NCBI GenBank assembly: GCA_963743525.1
Contig: CAVUQH010000002.1
Coordinates: forward strand, 128,001 to 192,000
Length of the DNA stretch: 64,000 bases
Direction of reading: 5' to 3'
DNA from: an uncultured delta proteobacterium
GTDB lineage: Bacteria; Myxococcota_A; Polyangia; Haliangiales; Haliangiaceae
Made by a program: the position numbers and the translations under genes. The notes under the pieces are model-generated. The model was not told where the DNA came from. It made no database searches and saw only the letters and a program-made list of their open reading frames with translations. Every line of letters begins with the position of its first letter. Within the stretch, counting starts at the first letter, position 1. Of this stretch, positions 9,036-54,415 are shown in pieces.

Positions 9036-9565
9036 TGCGCGCCGCGGCCGTGGCCGCGTCCATCGCCGTCGCCGTCGCTGCGCTGCCCGCGCTGGCGGCC
9101 GAGCCAGAGCCGTACCGCAACGCCGATCACCACTTTCAGATCGCGCTGGGCGACGGCTGGAACCCCACCGAACCGGGCACCGGCCCGGAGCAGCTTCTCC
9201 TGGCCCGCGCCGCTTCGGACGGACGCGCGCTGGCGGTCACCCGGGTCGCTTATCCCAACCCTCGCCGCCGCGACCACGACTACCAGAAGCAGATCGAGGC
9301 CGGCGTCGAGGCCGCGGCCCGCGGCTACCACCGCCTTTCGCACAAGGTCAGCCGCGCCGGCTACGTGGTCGTCATCGACGTGACCTACCGGCGCGACACC
9401 GACGGCGGGCGCGAGGTGGTCGCCAGCCGCTTCCTGCTGTTCCGCACCTTCACCCTGGTGCTGTCGGTGGCGATGCCGGCGCGCACCTGGCGCCACCAGC
9501 GGCGGCCGACGCAGAAGCTGGTCCGCTCGTTCGTGCCCTACTTCGCCGACGGCGACGAAGGCTGA
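9035..9565 (+). CDS. Hypothetical exported protein
   Basis: TGATG coupling at 9033-9037; signal-peptide-like MRAAAVAASIAVAVAALPALA. Confidence 0.7.
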   Translation: MRAAAVAASIAVAVAALPALAAEPEPYRNADHHFQIALGDGWNPTEPGTGPEQLLLARAASDGRALAVTRVAYPNPRRRDHDYQKQIEAGVEAAARGYHRLSHKVSRAGYVVVIDVTYRRDTDGGREVVASRFLLFRTFTLVLSVAMPARTWRHQRRPTQKLVRSFVPYFADGDEG

Positions 9566-10833
9566 CCGGCGCCGCCTGCCCGTCGCGCGATTTGCGGCGC
9601 CGACCAGCGGCAGAACAGGTCGCTGCGGTAGCGCGTACCGTCAGCGTGGAAAAACGCGAGGCGCTCGCCGTCGCGCTCGACACGGAGCTGCCCGCCGTGG
9701 ATTCGCCGGTGGTGCGTCGAACAGAGCAGCACCAGGTTGCCCGGCGCGTGATCGCCGCCGCGGGCGCGAGGGCGGATGTGGTGGACGTCGAGCCAGCTCG
9801 CGTTGCCGCAGCCGGGCACCGCACAGCGATGGTGAAACGCGCGGACCACCGCGCGCCGCACCGACGGTGGAATCGTCTGCGTCGCGCGGCCCTCGAGGGA
9901 CGCCGGGATGCCGGTGTGGTCACATTCGATCGCCGCGACCGTCGCCGAATCCAGCTGCACGCTGCGACCATCGGCCTCCGCAAACACGCGCGCGCAGTCG
10001 TCGCAGCGACTGACCGCAACCTGGTAGCCCGGCCGGCCGCTGTCCCGGTCCCGATCGTCGCCTGCATCCACCTCCCCGTTTCCGTCCCCGTTTCCGTCCC
10101 CGTTTCCGTCCCCGTTTCCGTCCCCGTTTCCGTCCCCGTTTCCGTCCCCGTTTCCGTCCCCGTTTCCGTCCCCGTTTCCGTCCCCGTTTCCGTCCCCGTC
10201 CCGCTCGTCACCCGAACCCGCGCACCCCGCGAGAAAGCCCCGCGCGATCATCGACAGCGCCACGTCGTCGTCAACCGGCCCGTCCCCCGCGCCATCGCCC
10301 AACCCAACGCCCAACCCATCGATTGACTGCCGCGCCACCCGGATCGCCTCCCGCACCATCGCGTACGTCTCCGGCGACACCTCGAACGCCAGCGTCCGCG
10401 GAAGCTCGCTGCGATCCGCGATCGTCCCCGGCCGATCACCCCGCGCCAGCCCCGCGACCATCTCGGCCACCTCCCGCGCACTCTGCCCGCGCGCCGCGAC
10501 CAGCCAGTCGTCCTCGGTGTCGCCCGTCGCCACCCGCGACAGCTCGCGCACATGCGTCCACGCGATCTCGCCGTCGGCCAGCGCCTCCGCCATCGACGGC
10601 AGCGCCGCCAACGCCAGCGCCACGCGGATCCGCTCGCGCCCCGTCTTGCGACCATATCCGAGCACCGCTTCCAGATACGCCGCATAGCTGGCAAAGCCAT
10701 ACGCCTCCCAGATCCGCACCGCATGCCCGGCGCGGAGATAGTGCGCCTCGGCCGCATCGAGCTCCGCACGATCCCGTCCCAGCGCGCGAAGCTGCCAGTG
10801 AATGTCGCCGATCTCCAACATCACCTCGCCCAT
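9538..10833 (-). CDS. HNH endonuclease with a DUF222-like N-terminal region and a (GNGD)n linker
   Basis: C-terminal RCAVPGC...LDVHHI...GGDH..GNLVLLCSTHHRRIH is a zinc-HNH motif. The N-terminal 'GFASYAAYLE..LG....RERIRVA.AL..LP....AL..GEI.W..VREL.RVAT' resembles myxobacterial/actinobacterial DUF222-HNH proteins. Confidence 0.85.
   Translation of the reverse strand: MGEVMLEIGDIHWQLRALGRDRAELDAAEAHYLRAGHAVRIWEAYGFASYAAYLEAVLGYGRKTGRERIRVALALAALPSMAEALADGEIAWTHVRELSRVATGDTEDDWLVAARGQSAREVAEMVAGLARGDRPGTIADRSELPRTLAFEVSPETYAMVREAIRVARQSIDGLGVGLGDGAGDGPVDDDVALSMIARGFLAGCAGSGDERDGDGNGDGNGDGNGDGNGDGNGDGNGDGNGDGNGDGNGDGNGEVDAGDDRDRDSGRPGYQVAVSRCDDCARVFAEADGRSVQLDSATVAAIECDHTGIPASLEGRATQTIPPSVRRAVVRAFHHRCAVPGCGNASWLDVHHIRPRARGGDHAPGNLVLLCSTHHRRIHGGQLRVERDGERLAFFHADGTRYRSDLFCRWSAPQIARRAGGAGQPSSPSAK
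10073..10199. repeat. Perfect 12-bp tandem repeat (CCCCGTTTCCGT) x10 plus a partial copy, inside the HNH gene
   Basis: Read directly; encodes (GNGD)n in the HNH frame. Confidence 0.97.
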
Positions 10834-11042
10834 ACACCGTCGTAGCACGCGTTTTTCACCCGCTCGGATCACCCACGCAGCGCGCCGCCACGCCGAGAAC
10901 CCACCCCGCCGACACAAAAACCGACCCGCGCCACGCACCAACCGCACACATCGCAACCGAGTCCCGCTGACGATCGATCGCGACCGCGTTGACCGTTCGC
11001 GCCGAAACCCGGTCAAGGCGCGATCGAAAAAAGTGTGTCAGG

Positions 11043-11088
11043 TCAGTGATTTTGTCACCCCTAACTGCTCAGTGATTCTGTCACCCCT
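11043..11088. repeat. 20-bp direct repeat pair TCAGTGATT(T/C)TGTCACCCCT
   Basis: Copies at 11043-11062 and 11069-11088 differ by 1 nt; each holds a GTGA-N5-TCAC dyad. Confidence 0.9.
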
Positions 11089-11160
11089 TCCAATTCCCGA
11101 GTGGCTCGCCATTCCGTGACGCGCCGCCTTCGCTTTCTCGCGCCCAGCGGCGCTCGCGAT

Positions 11161-11292
<132 letters not shown>

Positions 11293-11348
11293 CGCCGCCG
11301 CCCACCCACCGACCACGCACACCACGCCCCCCCCGCTCCCGCCCTCGC

Positions 11349-11520
11349 GGCCGCTCGGGGTGGGGTCCTCACCCAAGCTGGGACCCCACCCCGAGCGGCC
11401 CGCGGGCGCCGGTCGCAACCCACCCACCCCGAGCGGCCGCCGGCGCCACACGCAACCCACCCACCCCGAGCGGCCCGCGGACAGCCATCCACCCACAACC
11501 GCAGCCCACCCCGAGCGCCC
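11349..11520. repeat. Perfect 20-bp inverted repeat plus three further direct copies of the arm core (REP/BIME-like cluster)
   Basis: GGCCGCTCGGGGTGGGGTCC (11349-11368) pairs with GGACCCCACCCCGAGCGGCC (11381-11400) around a 12-nt loop. The core CCCACCCCGAGCG starts at 11385, 11423, 11460 and 11505. Confidence 0.88.
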
Positions 11521-11560
11521 CGCGGCCCCGGGCGGCCGCGCGCGCCACGCGCAACGCCTA

Positions 11561-17771: not shown

Positions 17772-19691
17772 ATGAGCGAGCGGATGTGGGAGCCGTCGCC
17801 CGAGCGCGTCAGCGCCGCGAAGTTGAGCCGTTTCATGGCCGGGGTCGGGCAGTCCGACTACGCGTCGTTGTACCGCTGGTCGATCGAACGACCGGCCGCG
17901 TTCTGGCGGGCGGTGTGGGACTTTTGCACAGTGATCGCGGAGACACCCGGCGACGAGGTGGTGCGCGATCTCGACCGCATGCCGGGAGCCAAATGGTTCC
18001 CGGACGCGCGGCTGTCGTTCGCCGAGAACCTGCTCCGCTACCGCGACGAGCACATTGCGCTACTGGCACGCGACGAGCGCGGGCGCTCGCGCCAGGTGAC
18101 GTACGCCGAGCTGTACGCGGAGGTCGCGCGGGTCGCGCGGGCGCTGCGCGCGCACGGCGTCGTCGCCGGTGACCGCGTCGCCGGCTTCGTGCCCAACATC
18201 GTCGAGTCGGTGGTGGCGATGCTCGCGGCGACCAGTATCGGCGCCATCTGGTCGTCGTCGTCCCCCGACTTCGGTCTGGCCGGTGTGCTCGATCGCTTCG
18301 GGCAGATCGAGCCGCGGGTGCTGTTCTGCGCCGACGGCTACTCCTACAACGGCAAGGAGATCGACTCGCTCGAGCGGGTCCGCGGCATCCTCGACGAGCT
18401 GCCCAGCGTGGAGAAGACCGTGGTGGTGCCGTACACCGGGCGGCCACTGTCCCTGGACGGCATCCGCGGCGGCGTGTCGTGGCGCGACTTCGCCGGTGAC
18501 GACGACGCAGGCGAGATCGAGTTCGCCCGCCTGCCGTTCGATCACCCGCTCTACATCATGTACTCGTCCGGCACCACCGGCGTACCCAAGTGCATCGTCC
18601 ACGGCGCCGGCGGCACCCTCTTGCAGCACCTCAAGGAGCACGTGCTGCACACCGACATCGGCCGCGACGACAAGCTGTTCTACTTCACCACCTGCGGGTG
18701 GATGATGTGGAACTGGCTGGTCAGCGGACTGGCCAGCGGCGCGACGGTGATGCTGTTCGACGGCTCGCCGGCCCACCCGGGTCCGGACGTGTTGTGGAAG
18801 TGGGCCGAGGAGACCGGCATGACCGTCTTCGGCACCAGCGCCAAGTACCTGTCGGCGATCGAGAAAGCCGGCGTCCGCCCCGCCGACTTCGAATTGTCCG
18901 CGCTGCGCGCGGTGCTGTTCACCGGCTCGGTGCTGGCGCCCGAGCAGTTCGACTGGGTCTACGACGCGGTGAAGAAGGACCTGCAGCTGGCGTCGATCTC
19001 CGGCGGCACCGACATCATCTCCTGCTTCGCCCTGGGCAACCCGATCGGCCCGGTCTACCGCGGCGAGCTGCAGACCCGTGGTCTGGGCATGAAGGTCGAG
19101 GTCTACGACGAGAACGGCCAGTCGGTGGTCGGGCAAAAAGGCGAGCTCTGCTGCACCATGCCGTTCCCGTCGATGCCGATCTACTTCTGGAACGACGAGG
19201 GCAACCAGCGCTACCGCGACTCCTACTTCGCCCGCTTCCCCGGCGTCTGGTGTCACGGCGACTTCGCCGAGCTGACCAACCACGGCGGCCTGATCATCTA
19301 CGGCCGCTCCGACGCGACGCTCAACCCCGGCGGCGTGCGCATCGGCACCGCCGAGATCTACCGCGTCGTCGAGACCCTCGACGACATCGTCGAAGCGGTC
19401 GCCGTCGGCCAGGAGTGGGAGGGCGACGTCCGCGTCTGCCTGTTCGTCGTCCTGCGCCCCGGCGCCGAGCTGACCCCCGAGCTCGAAAAGACCATCCGCA
19501 CCCGCCTGCGCGCCGAGGCCTCCCCCCGCCACGTCCCCGCCGTCATCCGCGCCGTCCCGGCAATCCCCCGCACCATCAGCGGCAAGATCGTCGAGCTGGC
19601 CATCCAGAACGTCCTCCACGGCCGCCCAGTTAGAAACGTCGACGCCCTGGCCAACCCCGAAGCCCTCGACCACTTCAAGAACCTCATCTAG
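17772..19691 (+). CDS. Acetoacetate--CoA ligase
   Basis: Motifs [69 protein letters not shown] and NPEAL. Confidence 0.95.
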
Positions 19692-45195: not shown

Positions 45196-45752
45196 CGGTA
45201 CAGTCCTCGCTCCGCGATATAGTTCATCACGGCCCGCGGCACCAGAGGAAGCGCGCTCTGTCCGCGCGCGAGCCGCGCCCGAACCTCCGTGGAGGAGACG
45301 TCGGGCAGCTCGAAATCGCCGGGCCCGGGGTAGCCGCGCCGGCCGACGACGATGGGCGGGGCCAGGGCCTCGATCTGGTCCCAGCGGTGCCATTTGTCCC
45401 GTTCAGCCAGGATGTCGGCGCCAACGACCACGCGGAACCGGGCCGCGGGGTGGCGCCGCACCAGCTCCTGAAGCGTGTCCAGGGTGCGACTCTTGGGTCG
45501 GCCCAGCTCTTCCTCGACCCGGGACACCGCGACCCGCTCACCGAGGGCGGCAAACGCCAGCTGGCACATGCGGAACCGGTCGTCGAACGGCACCAGGTGC
45601 TTGTCGAAGGCGTGGCGGAAGGTCGGCACCACCCACAGCCGGTCGACCTCCTGGGTCTCGAGCACGAACAGGCAAGCCATCTGGTGGGCCACGTGGGGCG
45701 GGTTGAAGCTGCCGCCGTAGAGGGCAATGGTGCCCGTGACCGGCTCGCTCAT
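45192..45752 (-). CDS. nadD: Nicotinate-nucleotide adenylyltransferase
   Basis: Motifs YGGSFNPPHVAH, VVGAD, WHRW and VSSTEVR. Confidence 0.92.
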   Translation of the reverse strand: MSEPVTGTIALYGGSFNPPHVAHQMACLFVLETQEVDRLWVVPTFRHAFDKHLVPFDDRFRMCQLAFAALGERVAVSRVEEELGRPKSRTLDTLQELVRRHPAARFRVVVGADILAERDKWHRWDQIEALAPPIVVGRRGYPGPGDFELPDVSSTEVRARLARGQSALPLVPRAVMNYIAERGLYR

Positions 45753-46933
45753 GAGTACAGCAACCAGGCGCCGCGGCGGGCGCGAAAGTCATCCTCCGCG
45801 GCCCGCCAGGTGGCGGCCAGCTCGACCAGCGACGCGCCGCTGTCGATGCCCTCGCGCAGCGCCGCCGAGCCGGCCAGGAGATCGAACGCCGGCACGTCGT
45901 CGACGAACTCGTACGCCCGCGTGCGCCAGCGGAAGGCGTCCGGATCCAGCGCGCGCACCGCGCGCACGAACGCGACCCCGGTGAGGTAGGGACGAAACGC
46001 GCCCGCATCGGTGACGTGGAGCTGCACGCCCCCGCACGCCCGGCCGGCGTGCTTCTGAAACGTGGGTGTGAAGGTCAGCGGACGGACCGCCAGCCCCGGC
46101 AGCTCGTCGCGCGTCAACGCCGCCGCCAGCGCGTGGCCCGCGACGTGCGGCGCCCCGGCGATCTCGAACGGCCGGGTGGTGCCCCTGCCCTCGCTGAGCT
46201 CGGTGCCTTCGACCAGACACATGCCGGGATAGACCAGCGCCGTGTCCAGCGTCGGCATGTTGGGCGACGGCATCACCCACGGCAGCCCGCTCTCGCCGTA
46301 CGACATCGAGCGCCGCCAGCCGCGCATCGAAACGATCTCGAGATCGACGTCCAGCTTCTCGGTATCCCGGGCAAAGCGCGCGATCTCGCCGGCGGTCATG
46401 CCGTGGCGGTTGGGCACGTTGCCGAGCCCGACGAACGAGTAGAAGCCGTCCTCGATGGCGCCGCCCTCGACCAGCTCGCCGCCGATCGGATTGGGCCGAT
46501 CGAGGACCACGACGCCGACGCCCGCACGCGCACACGCGCGCATCGCGTACACCAGCGTCCAGACGTACGTGTAGTAGCGAGAGCCGACGTCCTGGATGTC
46601 GAACACCACCGCGTCGAGCCCGTCGAGCGACTCCGCCGTCGGCGCCAGCGACCCCTCGTCGGCGCCGTACAGCGAGTAGACCGGCAACCCGGTGTGCGGG
46701 TCCTCCCGGTCCGAGTCGACCGTGATCATGTCCTGCGCGTCACCGCGCACCCCGTGCTCGGGCCCGAACAGCACCCGCAAGTCGAAGCGCGGATCCGCGT
46801 GCATCGCGTCGGCAACGTGGCGCAGCCCCGCGTCCACCGACGTCGGGTTGCAAATCAGCCCCAGCCGCCGCCCGTCCAGACCGCGCACCTCTCCGTCGAG
46901 CACCAACTGCAGCCCCGTCGCAACCCGAGTCAC
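45749..46933 (-). CDS. namZ: Exo-beta-N-acetylmuramidase (DUF1343)
   Basis: Motifs LFGPEHGVRG, PVYSLYG, FDIQDVGSRYYTY, LDRPNP, HGMTAGE, PSPNMPT and SEGRGTTRPFE. Confidence 0.92.
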   Translation of the reverse strand: MTRVATGLQLVLDGEVRGLDGRRLGLICNPTSVDAGLRHVADAMHADPRFDLRVLFGPEHGVRGDAQDMITVDSDREDPHTGLPVYSLYGADEGSLAPTAESLDGLDAVVFDIQDVGSRYYTYVWTLVYAMRACARAGVGVVVLDRPNPIGGELVEGGAIEDGFYSFVGLGNVPNRHGMTAGEIARFARDTEKLDVDLEIVSMRGWRRSMSYGESGLPWVMPSPNMPTLDTALVYPGMCLVEGTELSEGRGTTRPFEIAGAPHVAGHALAAALTRDELPGLAVRPLTFTPTFQKHAGRACGGVQLHVTDAGAFRPYLTGVAFVRAVRALDPDAFRWRTRAYEFVDDVPAFDLLAGSAALREGIDSGASLVELAATWRAAEDDFRARRGAWLLYS

Positions 46934-46984
46934 GCGGGGAGAGTATCGCGTCTTGCCACCCGAAGGGACTCCAGCCCCCCACTG

Positions 46985-47211
46985 CCCCGGCCCCGGCCCC
47001 GGATCCGGACCCCGACGCGGATCCGGACCCGGACCCGGATCCGGACACGGACCCGGATCCGGACACGGATCCGGACACGGACCCGGATCCGGACACGGAC
47101 ACGGACCCGGATCCGGACACGGACACGGACACGGACCCGGATCCGGACCCGGACCCGGACCCGGACCCGGACACGGATCCGGACGCGGATCCGGACGCGC
47201 CCCCGGACCCG
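46985..47211. repeat. Degenerate hexamer tandem array (about 37 units of ACCCGG/ATCCGG/ACACGG/ACGCGG/CCCCGG) directly downstream of the four-helix-bundle gene
   Basis: Read directly; 6-nt register throughout; begins about 4 nt after the TAG at 47216-47218. Confidence 0.96.
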
Positions 47212-47215
47212 CCCT

Positions 47216-47533
47216 CTACCGCGTCAGCCTGAACAGCGTCGCCGTCACCCGGTCGAAGCGATCCATCAGCCCCGCGTCGAGCGCCCCGACGTAGCCCATC
47301 GCCTCCGCGACCCGCAAATTCGCCACCGTCTCCCGCGCCGAGCCCAGCGCACTGTCATACCGCGCCCGCCGCGTACCGCCCCGACTCCCCTCCCCCTCGG
47401 CCAGATTCAACACGATCGACGTCGCCGACCGCCGCAGCTGCCGGGCCTGGTCCCTGTCGAACTTCCCGATCTGCCCGGCCAGCGGCCTCACATCGCGCAC
47501 CAACTCGATGCAAACAGTGTGAATACGAAGCAT
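47216..47533 (-). CDS. Four-helix-bundle protein (23S rRNA IVP / Avd-like family)
   Basis: D.A.QLRRSATSIVLNLAEG.G......R..Y..A.GSARE....L.VA...GY is the family signature; SD-like AAGGAGAGG upstream of ATG 47533. Confidence 0.9.
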   Translation of the reverse strand: MLRIHTVCIELVRDVRPLAGQIGKFDRDQARQLRRSATSIVLNLAEGEGSRGGTRRARYDSALGSARETVANLRVAEAMGYVGALDAGLMDRFDRVTATLFRLTR

Positions 47534-47582
47534 ACGATCCTCTCCTTGCGAAAGTGAGGTCTCCCTCACCGCCCAGCGCGCA

Positions 47583-47641
47583 GGCGGGGTCAAGGGCGCG
47601 AAGCGGCGCGCGCTCCGCGCGCGCGAACCCTTGACGCCGCC
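47583..47641. promoter_or_regulatory. Long hairpin in the leader of the four-helix-bundle gene
   Basis: GGCGGGGTCAAGGG (47583-47596) pairs with CCCTTGACGCCGCC (47628-47641) with one mismatch and encloses an inner GCGCGCG/CGCGCGC stem. Confidence 0.65.
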
Positions 47642-47794
47642 GAGCACTGGGCGACGATCGAGACTCACGAGCGCGAGCCCAACCCTCCGCCCCCCCCTGG
47701 ACTCCGGGCCCTTCCCGCCCTCCGCTCACGACGATCGGCAAGAAAGGCGAGCCCAAGCGCACGCGCACGGGCGATCTGCAGCTGGCGGATCTAT

Positions 47795-49294
47795 CTAGAC
47801 GATCGGAACCGGCTTCAGACTGACCTTGCCGTCGGCGACGACGACCTTGAAGCGGATCGCGCTGCACTGATAGCGCGCCTTGAGGTTGGACTCGTTGATC
47901 CGCAACTTGGTGACGAAGCTGTCGAACGTGACGCCTTCACTGTCCAGCCCGACCTGATCGCGCGCCGCGACGTACTCGCCGTAGATGCGCTTGTAGTAGT
48001 CGGGCTCCGGCTCCTGCGCCAGGCGCACCGCCTCTTCGTCCTTGTCCGACAGATCGGTATCGAAGTCGAGGCGGTTGGGCTGAACGATGTTGCCGTCCTC
48101 GTCGTACTCCTCTTCGCCCGGTTCCGGACGTCCGAGCAGTCGCGCGAGCATGACGTTCAGGCCGTTGGCCACACCGTCGAGCTCGGCGCCGACCGAGCGG
48201 AACGAGTAGTCGAGGTTGCCGTTGATGATCTCGGCCAGACCCATCTCGATCTGGTCGGTCTGCTGCGTCACGCGCCGACCCGAGAACCACAGCGCCAGCA
48301 CGGCGATGATGATGGCGCCGATGCCGACGAGCAGGATGCCCATCTTGGCCGCGCCGACCGGCTCGAGCGCGTCGTCGAGCGAGATCAGCACCATCGCGCC
48401 GACGTTCTGCTGCGGATAGTCGGAGGGGAAGCCTTTGCTGGAGAAGCGGACCAGCCGCCCCGCGGCGGCGATGTAGCGATCCCCACCGACCTCGATCTCG
48501 ACCGGATCGGCCAGGCCGCTCTTGGACGACAGTGAGGCCTTGGACAGCCCGGCGGCCAGCGCCTTGGACAGCTGCGCTTGCTTGGGCGTGTCCTCCAGCT
48601 TGGTCCCGGCCTTGCGGAACGACGTCGCCGCCGCCCGGTCGCCCTCGAAGTACGCGACCTCGGCGCCGAGCATCGACGACTGCCGCTGGGCCTCCTCGTG
48701 CGACAGCACGTAGGCGACGACCACGGCACCCGCGACCTGGTTGGAGTCGTAGTCGACCACCGGCGCGACGCCGACCTTCATCAGGCCCTGGCCCTCGAGG
48801 TTGAGGATGTCGCTGACCATGTGCGCCTTGGTCGGATCGGGATTGAGCGCCAGCTCGATGCTGCGGTACTTGAGCCGGTCCCCGTCCTTCCACGCGCCGG
48901 GATTGGTGATGCGCGTCGGCTCTCCCTGGAGATCGAGCACCACCAGGTCGCCCTCGCGGTCGAGCAGCGCCATGATGTCCACGCTCTCACCGCCGCCGGC
49001 GCCGGCGCGGTAGGCCTGGAACGCCATGCCGGCCCGCTCGAAGGCGACGTCGTCGGTCTCCGCCTTGAGCGCCGAGAGCAGATTCTCGTCGCGGCTGAGA
49101 TCCTCGACTCGCTTGAGCAGACTGAGGCCCTCGAGCTTGCTGTTCTGAATCAGCAACTCCTGGGCCTTGGCCACGCGAACCTTGACGTCGCGCTCCAGAC
49201 GGCTATCCAGCCGCGACGTGGTCACGAAATAAGCAGCTCCGGTCAGTACCAAGACCAAGAGCGTGACAGCTCCCCCGATGATCGCCCGAGACAT
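47795..49294 (-). CDS. MXAN_5187-family membrane protein (periplasmic sensor-like domain, HAMP-like region, MXAN_5187 C-terminal domain)
   Basis: Two TM helices; C-terminal 'YYKRIYGEYVAAR...G.....VTFDSF..KL..NE..L...Y.C..IRFKV.V.DGKVSLKP.P'. Confidence 0.78.
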   Translation of the reverse strand: MSRAIIGGAVTLLVLVLTGAAYFVTTSRLDSRLERDVKVRVAKAQELLIQNSKLEGLSLLKRVEDLSRDENLLSALKAETDDVAFERAGMAFQAYRAGAGGGESVDIMALLDREGDLVVLDLQGEPTRITNPGAWKDGDRLKYRSIELALNPDPTKAHMVSDILNLEGQGLMKVGVAPVVDYDSNQVAGAVVVAYVLSHEEAQRQSSMLGAEVAYFEGDRAAATSFRKAGTKLEDTPKQAQLSKALAAGLSKASLSSKSGLADPVEIEVGGDRYIAAAGRLVRFSSKGFPSDYPQQNVGAMVLISLDDALEPVGAAKMGILLVGIGAIIIAVLALWFSGRRVTQQTDQIEMGLAEIINGNLDYSFRSVGAELDGVANGLNVMLARLLGRPEPGEEEYDEDGNIVQPNRLDFDTDLSDKDEEAVRLAQEPEPDYYKRIYGEYVAARDQVGLDSEGVTFDSFVTKLRINESNLKARYQCSAIRFKVVVADGKVSLKPVPIV

Positions 49295-52907: not shown

Positions 52908-53156
52908 AGGGTCGTCCTTTCTGGCCGGGTCTCTAGCCTAGGTACGCACGAGACTGGCGGTTCGATTCAAATGCACGCCGCGCGCCATCATGACGGGGCC
53001 GCGCGCCGGGCGCCGGGCCGAGTGATTGCGAGGCGTTGCACCAGGGGAACGAGATGCGCCGGCGGGCCTTGCGTGAACCCGCCTTCACAGCCTGCGTGGC
53101 CCCTGTGCAACAGCCCCCTCGCACGGCCGCAGACCATTGGAATGCTTGTGCTATCC

Positions 53157-53185
53157 TTGACAGCAAAATCCTGCACCTATATCGT
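53157..53185 (+). promoter_or_regulatory. Sigma70-type promoter
   Basis: TTGACA (53157-53162), 17-bp spacer, TATCGT (53180-53185); SD GGGAGG at 53199-53204 before TTG 53210. Confidence 0.7.
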
Positions 53186-53209
53186 CCCGTCTCCGATTGG
53201 GAGGTCCCC

Positions 53210-54415
53210 TTGAGCCAGTCCGCGAAACGCCCGGGCGTGCGTGATATCAGTGATCTGAAAGCCCGTCTGGGATTGAAGAAGGCGGCGCCGGCGAAGCCCG
53301 CCCGCGGCGTCGTGCCGCCCCCAGGCGTGAAGGGCTCCGTGCCCGCCCCTCCCGGCGCTCAACCCGCCGGACCCAAGGTCTCCGATGATCCCTTCGGCGC
53401 GCTGAACGCCGCCGCGACCTCTGCCGCCCGTGCGCCAGCTCACCACGGGCCGGAGATCGTCGTCATCGAGAAGGGCGAAGCGATCGAGAGCGTCGAGCAC
53501 AAGGGCGCCGCGATCCGCTTCGCCAAGATCGCCGGCCTGGTCCTGATCCCGCTGATCGTCGGCGTGGCCATCGGCGAGATCGGCACCAACTCCAAGCAGT
53601 TCAACCGCACGATTCACGACGCCGGCAAGATCGCCAAGGAGATCACCAAGGGCCGCAAGTCGCTCAAGGGCTACCAGTACGCGTTCCAGAACGCGGCCGA
53701 AGGCGGCTTCAAGAGCTTCGACCCCGATCTGACCAAGAAGCTGGAAGCCGTCGAGGCCTCGAGCTTCGACGACTCGGTGATCTACAAGTCCTGGCTCTAC
53801 GAGCTGGATCCCGATCTGGTCGCCGACACCCTCTACTTCGCCAGCGAGCAGACCAAGCTCATCAAGGACATCAAGGCTCACATCACGCTCACCAAGCGTG
53901 ACGAGAAGTACTTGCTGGAAGCCAAGGCGAACAAGAAGAAGTCGGCGCCTCCGGCGAACGACACCGGAACGCAATACACGGCGTATCGCTACGCCATCAT
54001 GGTCCAGGTTCCCTCCGAGCAGGAAGCGCAGCAGGGCAGCAAGCCGTTCGGCACTCAGGTGGTCGAGCTGGGCATGCCCTACTGTGGCGACAAGCTGAGC
54101 GAGACCGGCGACTGCGGCACCTCGTCGCCGACCGCCTTCGCCTACCGCACGGGCCCCGACGAGCCGTGGAAGAAAGGCGAGCCGCAGCCCGCCGCCGGCG
54201 CCCTCGAGGACGGCAAGCTGATGCTGATCCTGCCCGACGGCACCATGGAAACCCTGGCCCGCGGTACCAACCCCGCCTACGCCGAGAAGGAGTACCTCGA
54301 GCGGGTGAAGAACCTCGCCGAGAAAACCTCCGAGCTGGTCGAGCTGGCGGGCAAGCTCGAGAACGACCTCAAGGCCAAGTCCGGCGCGGGCGAGAAGTTC
54401 ACCTTCTTCCTCTAG
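53210..54415 (+). CDS. Hypothetical single-pass membrane protein
   Basis: Strong codon bias; Pro-rich N-terminus, one TM (IAGLVLIPLIVGVAIG) and a helical C-domain with a Cys pair. Confidence 0.85.
   Translation: MSQSAKRPGVRDISDLKARLGLKKAAPAKPARGVVPPPGVKGSVPAPPGAQPAGPKVSDDPFGALNAAATSAARAPAHHGPEIVVIEKGEAIESVEHKGAAIRFAKIAGLVLIPLIVGVAIGEIGTNSKQFNRTIHDAGKIAKEITKGRKSLKGYQYAFQNAAEGGFKSFDPDLTKKLEAVEASSFDDSVIYKSWLYELDPDLVADTLYFASEQTKLIKDIKAHITLTKRDEKYLLEAKANKKKSAPPANDTGTQYTAYRYAIMVQVPSEQEAQQGSKPFGTQVVELGMPYCGDKLSETGDCGTSSPTAFAYRTGPDEPWKKGEPQPAAGALEDGKLMLILPDGTMETLARGTNPAYAEKEYLERVKNLAEKTSELVELAGKLENDLKAKSGAGEKFTFFL

Follow-up and report, generated by a model that had tools for sequence, protein, structure and literature searches.

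We found that the gene for a small four-helix-bundle protein in the 64,000-nucleotide stretch of DNA analyzed here (the window) belongs to a compact cassette, which is present in multiple copies and was very probably mobile, being gained and lost between related genomes. On balance, we favor a reading in which this cassette of array, fold-back leader and gene spreads via single-stranded DNA, with the fold of its antisense strand as a predicted sigma-70-type promoter. The source genome (G000, 8.55 Mb) contained 17 intact copies and one decayed copy spread over seven contigs, and these were 56-91% identical to the gene at 47533..47216. The parts of the cassette at this site and the two flanking host genes are as follows.

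45749..46933, minus strand: flanking host gene namZ, outside the cassette (PF07075 and PF20732).
46962..47775, minus strand: whole insertion relative to the empty site of the congener G001, about 0.82 kb, with approximate ends.
46986..47211, minus strand: hexamer array of 37 units (repeat finder), GGGTCC, GGATCC, GTGTCC and GCGTCC on the gene strand.
47533..47216, minus strand: four-helix-bundle gene, 105 aa (PF05635/TIGR02436), one of the 17 intact paralogues in the source genome.
47540..47547, minus strand: Shine-Dalgarno-like AAGGAGAG, found in the sequence, outside the conserved stem and unpaired in the consensus structure.
47554..47679, no strand assigned: conserved leader, made up of the imperfect fold-back 47554-47668 and the GGCTCGCGCTC start; a predicted single-stranded-DNA promoter when the plus strand of the window (antisense to the gene) folds.
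47554..47596, plus strand: predicted template arm, with the complement of the invariant TTGAC (47589-47593) and a variable stretch unable to pair with the -10 box (comparison of 39 leaders).
47631..47636, plus strand: -35-like hexamer TTGACG in the predicted non-template arm (leader comparison).
47653..47658, plus strand: -10-like hexamer GACGAT, 16 nt past the -35 hexamer and matching 3/6 of the consensus here (leader comparison; missed by a consensus promoter scan).
47694..47739, minus strand: degenerated REP-like palindrome of the CTGAGCG...GTCGAAGG type, whose counterparts at this position in the metagenome relative L125 and in the G001 copies are intact.
47746..47769, minus strand: possible leftover of an upstream hexamer run, about four degenerate units, seen in the sequence only and below the repeat-finder threshold.
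47795..49294, minus strand: flanking host gene with an MXAN_5187 C-terminal domain (domain match), outside the cassette.

The coordinates, family scores and predicted fold confirmed that a 105-aa four-helix-bundle gene lies between namZ and an MXAN_5187-type gene, as stated in a preliminary description of this DNA. The protein scored 42.7 bits against PF05635 (cut-off 33.8) and 43 against TIGR02436 (cut-off 24), and its predicted structure consisted of four helices with a pLDDT of 94.8. The top structural match of the model was Xcc0516 (2GSC) with a TM score of 0.87, and the comparison with Avd (4DWL) gave a TM score of 0.71, an E value of 0.29 and 14% identity. The R, S, N, E and G residues of the motif RxxxSxxxNxxEG were invariant across 20 sequences. 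Purifying selection on the copies was evident from a median dN/dS of 0.31, with values below 0.5 in 125 of 136 pairs. The neighboring MXAN_5187-type gene matched in its C-terminal domain, and the whole-family model scored under its cut-off. One RNA run yielded a single contig, which was located on the gene upstream of the cassette. The contigs from the 4 sequencing runs covered, of 20 listed, did not span the array. A search of 46500-48200 revealed no rRNA or Rfam family at gathering score, only sub-threshold hairpin matches, and no PF00078 reverse transcriptase was matched in the source genome, which is 97% complete; the absence of both rRNA and reverse transcriptase thus agreed with the preliminary description.

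Comparison with G001 revealed the empty site directly, as namZ lies next to the MXAN_5187-type gene in this congener with no cassette between them. The distance from the upstream stop codon to the namZ start was 36 bp in G001 versus 861 bp in the source genome. Among 29 other loci of the upstream gene, namZ was found within 1.5 kb in 22 and the cassette in none, which identifies this copy as an insertion; the gene is not a fixed syntenic core gene with an array added sporadically. Eleven of the 18 source-genome sites were compared with G001: eight showed no trace of a cassette, one was non-syntenic and two held deletion remnants, so that part of the absences reflect losses. A G001 copy with an internal deletion occupied a site that is empty in the source genome. 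At the locus L077, the empty G001 site was a clean junction with 3 bp between convergent stop codons, and neither target duplications nor terminal inverted repeats were found at the compared junctions, including this one. In L125, a cassette was present at the same namZ site; its protein was 88% identical and its array was shorter, with partly different units. Two further differences between genomes were observed. At C12:642394-644188, the source genome has a frameshifted 5'-nucleotidase-like region (by eye) where G001 has its intact cassette, and the metagenome relative L131 carries a cassette with tandem REP-like units right behind the gene at window 53036-54415 (about 54428), where the source genome differs.

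Most insertions start only a few bases from the stop codon upstream, and 13 of the 18 cassette sites were convergent junctions, compared with 20% of junctions overall (classes read by hand). The inferred leading strand carried 13 of the 18 copies. A GTAG/TAG target preference was considered and rejected, since TAG stops make up 53% of the background at convergent junctions anyway. No constant target motif of 4-5 nt was found at the junctions, which are blurred by flanks that are 83-93% identical. No circular form was found. In the youngest pair of copies (dS 0.006), the array stood on opposite sides of the two copies, a pattern compatible with a circular stage or with gene conversion. This near-identical pair looked mosaic at the C-terminus, which favors some gene conversion, and gene conversion may thus mimic recent jumps.

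Homologues were found in 20 of 41 searched genomes (source genome included), with up to 15 matches per genome. In a species-level scan, a Kofleriaceae MAG was the sole named genome to contain full-length close relatives, so that the host is likely a myxobacterium of that group. Outside the source genome, 35 of 53 homologue loci had an array no more than 450 nt upstream or 300 nt downstream, compared with 0 of 26 control flanks, which were partly coding. The count was 32 of 50 after removal of two loci taken twice and one near-identical copy, and 21 of 31 among the loci with full flanks. A leader profile found 18 full leaders in the source genome, all fused to the gene, plus one short remnant; no orphan full leader was found there. 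Thus, both the array and the leader were present at all 18 copies of the source genome, and the expected enrichment of flanking arrays and leaders at homologues was observed. As all 18 copies carry leader and array and empty sites exist, the proposal that leader, gene and array form one unit was upheld. No relative of the cassette was found among 26 candidate stretches of viral contigs. A REP-like palindrome (CTGAGCG...GTCGAAGG type) stood 5' of the leader in several copies; a strict REP pattern found 11 copies and missed degenerate ones beside cassettes. At this site, the array occupies the place of the short GC-rich 3' hairpin that is found in most copies. An orphan remnant at C20 ~19410-19535 consists of a REP-like unit, the first 40 nt of the leader and the 3' hairpin, with the gene deleted.

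The array at 46986-47211 spans 226 bp with a period of 6 and 37.7 copies and starts 4 nt past the stop codon. These values reproduced the array of about 227 bp reported earlier at about 4 nt after the stop, and its small alphabet of units was the same, read on the other strand. On the gene strand, the 37 units comprised GGGTCC (12), GGATCC (10), GTGTCC (9), GCGTCC (2), GGGGCC (2) and others (2). The unit order had been described as non-periodic; no period was found, but the order was not random, as it contained 11 repeated trigrams versus 5.5 in shuffles (P 0.004), and GGATCC never followed itself. Such repeated blocks beyond chance are what block slippage would give. All 18 cassettes had an array within 70 nt, 15 upstream, six downstream and three on both sides. 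The claim that the array begins right after the stop codon was therefore not borne out as a rule, with an array downstream of the stop at only 6 of 18 copies and upstream at 15 of 18. The unit families tracked the gene tree, namely GGRTCC in the clade of this copy and GCGCCC/GCGCTC, GGGGAY and GGGCGC/GTGCTC in others. The array was hypervariable and changed even between orthologous copies. The CCGGATCCGG palindromes, to which the preliminary description had drawn attention, were not conserved, as other copies use GGGGAY, GGGTTT, GTGCTC and GGGCGC; the palindromes were therefore rejected as a functional feature. Mirror-image arms were likewise rejected as a rule, being present in 1 of 18 copies and at a divergent gene on contig C3 only. 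The latter (L088, C3:251287-252437) is a divergent PF05635 gene flanked by mirror-image GTTGAC and GTCAAC arrays, without this leader.

Short-repeat arrays were not confined to the cassette. The source genome contained 145 arrays of short period and at least 70 bp, of which 21 touched a cassette and 124 lay elsewhere, and about 60 other non-coding arrays were counted per 5,379 genes with a rough gene finder. Similar arrays flanked unrelated multi-copy genes, namely DUF222-HNH genes, RAYT-like genes and a second hairpin family. Together with the array changes between orthologous copies, this lends no support to the earlier suggestion that the protein would bind its own repeats. The DUF222-HNH gene at window 9541-11525 carries a 12-nt array within it, along with an upstream hexamer array, a GGGGTGGG...CTCACCC hairpin and a conserved hairpin leader of the form TTGACC-N16-GGTCAA, and it is one of about ten such multi-copy elements in the source genome. 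An IS3-type element was found inside a hexamer array three times (C8:780513-782004, C8:916840-918279 and C2:120228-122138), and at the first of these sites the array halves around the element now differ (GCTTGG versus GTTTGG). These observations raise the question of whether any dedicated system is involved, as a small gene and its promoter could have been scattered by repeat-mediated recombination into gene-end sites rich in microsatellites and other elements. The 124 arrays away from cassettes, the arrays around DUF222-HNH and Y1 genes, the IS3-type insertions into arrays and the preference for convergent junctions all agree with this explanation. We nevertheless consider it improbable, because the eight empty sites carry no array, the array type tracks the gene tree and the leader structure is under selection. 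The empty sites without arrays also indicate that the array arrives with the cassette.

All 18 copies shared a leader of about 125 nt. Folded as DNA, the fold-back at 47554-47668 had a free energy of -52.1 kcal/mol (z -4.66), and none of 200 shuffles was as stable. The hairpin with a 14-bp stem noted earlier before the gene was indeed present with 13 of 14 positions paired, but it was merely the inner part of this longer imperfect fold-back. In a consensus structure from 21 leaders, 7 of 33 pairs were compensatory, and hence the leader was conserved with covariation. The leader also has an internal loop, GAGCAC/TGCGC, that is invariant. We then compared 43 leaders (18 from the source genome, one from G001, three from the Kofleriaceae MAG and 21 from metagenomes), of which 39 could be anchored; the decayed copy, one divergent leader and two truncated leaders were left out. 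On the antisense strand, all 39 anchored leaders contained TT(G/T)A(C/T/G)N-16-(G/T)ANNNT. The -35-like hexamers were TTGACN (27), TTTACN (8), TTGATA (3) and TTGAGG (1), and there were 11 different -10 hexamers, with TANNNT in 12 of 39. Position 2 (A, -11A) and position 6 (T, -7T) of the -10 hexamer were identical in all 39 leaders with no parsimony changes, compared with 15 changes at positions 3-5 on the gene tree, and neither -11A nor -7T was ever Watson-Crick paired in the fold. Sigma-70 reads these two bases as unpaired non-template bases. The TTGAC of the partner arm was likewise found in 39 of 39 leaders with no changes, compared with eight in the opposite arm, and was retained even where pairing breaks. 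The duplex re-formed 4-7 nt past the -10 box in 34 of 39 leaders. Among the non-canonical cells of 19 stem columns, G·T occurred 16 times on the antisense fold and once on the sense fold, or three times if the pairs beside the internal loop are included; these counts are not independent, as the leaders are related. A composite promoter pattern matched 17 times in 8.55 Mb, always at intact cassettes; as it was built from these same leaders, this shows specificity and not function. In its strict form the pattern was absent before HNH and Y1 genes.

We consider it likely from these features that the leader is a Frpo-like single-stranded-DNA promoter aimed at the gene. In an alternative to the DNA fold, read-through of the upstream gene would yield a gene-strand RNA that folds into a structured leader, and the pentameric protein would bind either this leader or the repeat RNA. 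The stem covaries, the sense RNA folds well (z -3.04), and 17 of 18 copies are oriented as the upstream gene (read by hand), although 13 of the 18 sites are convergent, so either orientation matches an upstream gene. RNA binding by pentameric Avd is also described (10.1101/2023.10.23.563531). An RNA leader accounts poorly for the 16:1 wobble bias toward the antisense fold, the promoter-like conservation and the retention of the partner TTGAC despite broken pairing; moreover, the Shine-Dalgarno sequence lies outside the stem and the array units vary among copies. The conservation of the leader, which had been taken for an RNA element, appears from these comparisons to fit an antisense-strand DNA fold-back promoter better, and the RNA explanation seems quite unlikely.

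Several observations speak against the promoter or the antisense fold. The -10 box of this copy matches the consensus at only 3/6 positions, and for this reason a consensus scan calls no promoter here. The spacer measures 16 nt, and GC-rich sequence occupies the loop that precedes the -35 box, with no AT-rich UP element. The folding energy of the whole leader as DNA favored the antisense strand in only 25 of 43 leaders, and the -11 column forms a G·U wobble in the sense-strand RNA in 36 of 39, which suits an RNA leader. In more distant four-helix-bundle subfamilies, the leaders form long hairpins, and no TANNNT box was noticed by eye in the portion inspected. In these subfamilies (L004, L005, L023, L024 and L027-L030), a GTCAC-N5-STGCGC motif was noted by eye, with a spacing like that of the TTGAC-N5-CTGCGC of this family and like a sigma-54 site, and some of the genes occur as convergent pairs. 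A sigma-54 reading of the AC-N5-TGC motif was rejected, as this subfamily is without the GG.

The base composition of the genes was also strand-biased. Four-fold sites were G+T rich on the sense strand (G.605 and T.122, versus.40 and.05 in the genome), and 15 of 17 copies lay above the 97th percentile for this skew on either replichore. The same skew was found in array-flanked Y1 and HNH genes and was absent in most distant four-helix-bundle subfamilies. This skew sits badly with the single-stranded model, because cytosine deamination would skew the single-stranded strand, which here is the strand opposite to the folding one; a possible explanation is that the template is selected to be poor in G and to fold weakly. 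The homologues L013, L014 and L028 have C-rich four-fold sites (G+T fraction 0.12-0.31) and C-rich arrays on the same strand, so the skews of gene and array seem to be linked.

Outward firing from duplex DNA is also conceivable for the boxes. In one explanation of this kind, they would form an ordinary duplex promoter that drives transcription outward across the upstream array, the hairpin would be an end recognized in trans by a HUH/Y1 transposase in the style of IS200/IS605 or REPIN, and the gene would be a passenger. The -35 and -10 boxes are collinear on one duplex strand and no target duplication was found, as this explanation would have it. No Y1 transposase lies inside the cassette, and the source genome has seven PF01797 matches elsewhere. 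RAYT-like genes resemble the cassette in both their array-plus-palindrome layout and their G+T skew; Y1 genes of this type preceded by hexamer arrays and REP-like palindromes were found at C2:232286, C4:459019, C14:753837, C17:15899, C19:360072 and C22:29511. Co-occurrence was weak, with Y1 in 17 of 20 genomes with the gene versus 11 of 21 without it (P 0.043, kin not independent), and the cassette-rich genomes G006 and G014 had no Y1 match at E 1e-4. The explanation also leaves unaccounted for the invariant partner TTGAC, the bubble on the -10 box and the purifying selection on a mere passenger, and no constant junction motif was found, the share of TAG stops being that of convergent junctions in general. 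We regard it as unlikely.

The preliminary description had further suggested mobilization in trans. In a retro-mobile unit, read-through RNA would be copied into antisense cDNA by a reverse transcriptase acting in trans with an Avd-like cofactor, and the arrays would be reiterated tails. The promoter is predicted to fold on the very strand that such a cDNA would supply, the copies begin right after stop codons, and Avd is a reverse transcriptase cofactor. However, PF00078 was matched in none of the three searched genomes with this subfamily (G000, G001 and G010), reverse transcriptases showed no association across the 41 genomes (12 of 20 versus 12 of 21), and the protein is nearer to Xcc0516 than to Avd. 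With no such enzyme found in these three genomes and no association across the 41, a reverse transcriptase was rejected as the mover, and the retro-mobile explanation is highly improbable.

To place the cassette among known systems, we compared its parts with those of related elements. MITEs and mobile insertion cassettes are defined by terminal inverted repeats and target-site duplication, neither of which was found at the compared junctions here. Non-autonomous elements of the IS200/IS605, REPIN and MITE type bear hairpins, have no transposase of their own, favor gene ends and convergent junctions and, as hairpin-type elements, leave no target duplication. The cassette resembles them in its hairpin, its lack of a transposase and its sites, but it carries an intact gene under selection, a predicted single-strand promoter and variable microsatellite flanks. 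IS200/IS605 and REPIN elements have a constant 4-5 nt target motif at the left junction and hairpins at both ends; a 3' hairpin was present in most copies of the cassette and absent from this one. Retrons (msDNA) are defined by a cognate reverse transcriptase beside msr-msd, and the genome of the cassette has no PF00078 match. Intervening sequences of 23S rRNA lie inside the 23S rRNA gene and are excised by RNase III; the cassette sits between protein-coding genes with no rRNA match and has its own conserved leader and arrays. The cassette protein shares the PF05635/TIGR02436 family and fold with Xcc0516 (2GSC) and BT_0352 (2RLD), and the arrays of this subfamily are mostly not inverted arms around the gene. 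To our knowledge, pentameric nucleic-acid binding in PF05635/TIGR02436 proteins is known for Xcc0516 and Avd only. PMC4990558 describes ORF-bearing 23S rRNA intervening sequences as selfish inserts with a protein of this family. In PMC10053308 and 10.1101/2023.10.23.563531, Avd is an accessory protein of diversity-generating retroelements (DGRs) that binds nucleic acid as a pentamer. The fold of the cassette protein is related to that of Avd, but no reverse transcriptase was found in the cassette genome, and no template/variable repeat pair was seen.

The closest parallel to the leader was Frpo/ssi (ssp1, ssp2), which PMC9849209, PMC11541004 and 10.64898/2026.01.09.698686 describe as single-stranded DNA promoters of conjugative plasmids. 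Directly before a gene, a long imperfect stem-loop of Frpo restores both the -35 and the -10 box once its template strand has become single-stranded (PMC9849209 and PMC11541004), and an AT-rich UP element upstream of the -35 box served as a search criterion for Frpo (PMC11541004). Promoters of this kind lie in the leading region of a conjugative element and fire from single-stranded but not duplex DNA. The template-strand fold-back of the cassette leader would similarly rebuild both boxes before the gene, with the weak -10 box of this copy noted above. In contrast to Frpo, the cassette leader is chromosomal and multi-copy, with one per small gene, is predicted from sequence, and has a GC-rich loop instead of the UP element; no oriT or transfer genes were seen beside the cassette, whose flanks are conserved chromosomal genes. 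The cassette would work like a Frpo-driven gene within a non-autonomous element. As a unit, it did not clearly show the defining features of rRNA intervening sequences, DGRs, retrons, MITEs or IS200/IS605, and its parts are of known kinds. A description of such a cassette was not found in the literature searched.

In the single-stranded reading that we prefer, the antisense strand would fold back with the -35 box paired, the -10 box unpaired and the duplex re-formed near +1, which would place the start of RNA polymerase about 25 nt upstream of the ATG. In duplex DNA this promoter would be off, as the gene strand offers a -35 box but G-rich sequence in place of a -10 box. Production of the protein would then be limited to the time when a copy is single-stranded, and its action would fall mostly on that same copy, as a consequence of which dispersed copies would stay intact and the deleted copies observed would each be unique. 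The arrays would be carried along with the cassette and change quickly through slippage, and would not serve to store information. For cutting and joining, the cassette would depend on an enzyme whose gene lies elsewhere; the Y1/HUH (RAYT-like) transposases of the genome and host recombination are candidates. A bolder and doubtful extension is that the cassette represents a new class of minimal mobile element, in which a single strand is released, the fold-back end recruits host RNA polymerase for expression and second-strand priming, the pentamer drives its own copy into gene ends, and each hop makes or lengthens the arrays as tails. If a Y1 transposase is the mover, the claim to a new kind of unit falls.

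TIGR02436/PF05635 genes are scattered through many bacterial genomes, and we know of no function for them outside diversity-generating retroelements. In the cassette described here, the family takes a self-contained, polymorphic form, and this site contributes an insertion with its empty counterpart, an orthologous copy whose array has changed and a comparison of the promoter resolved by strand. Were the minimal-element reading true, the orphan TIGR02436 family would gain a function, and Avd would be a domesticated mobility factor. If the single-stranded model holds, single-strand promoters would not be confined to conjugative plasmids, and a class of transposase-free elements would have been missed so far.
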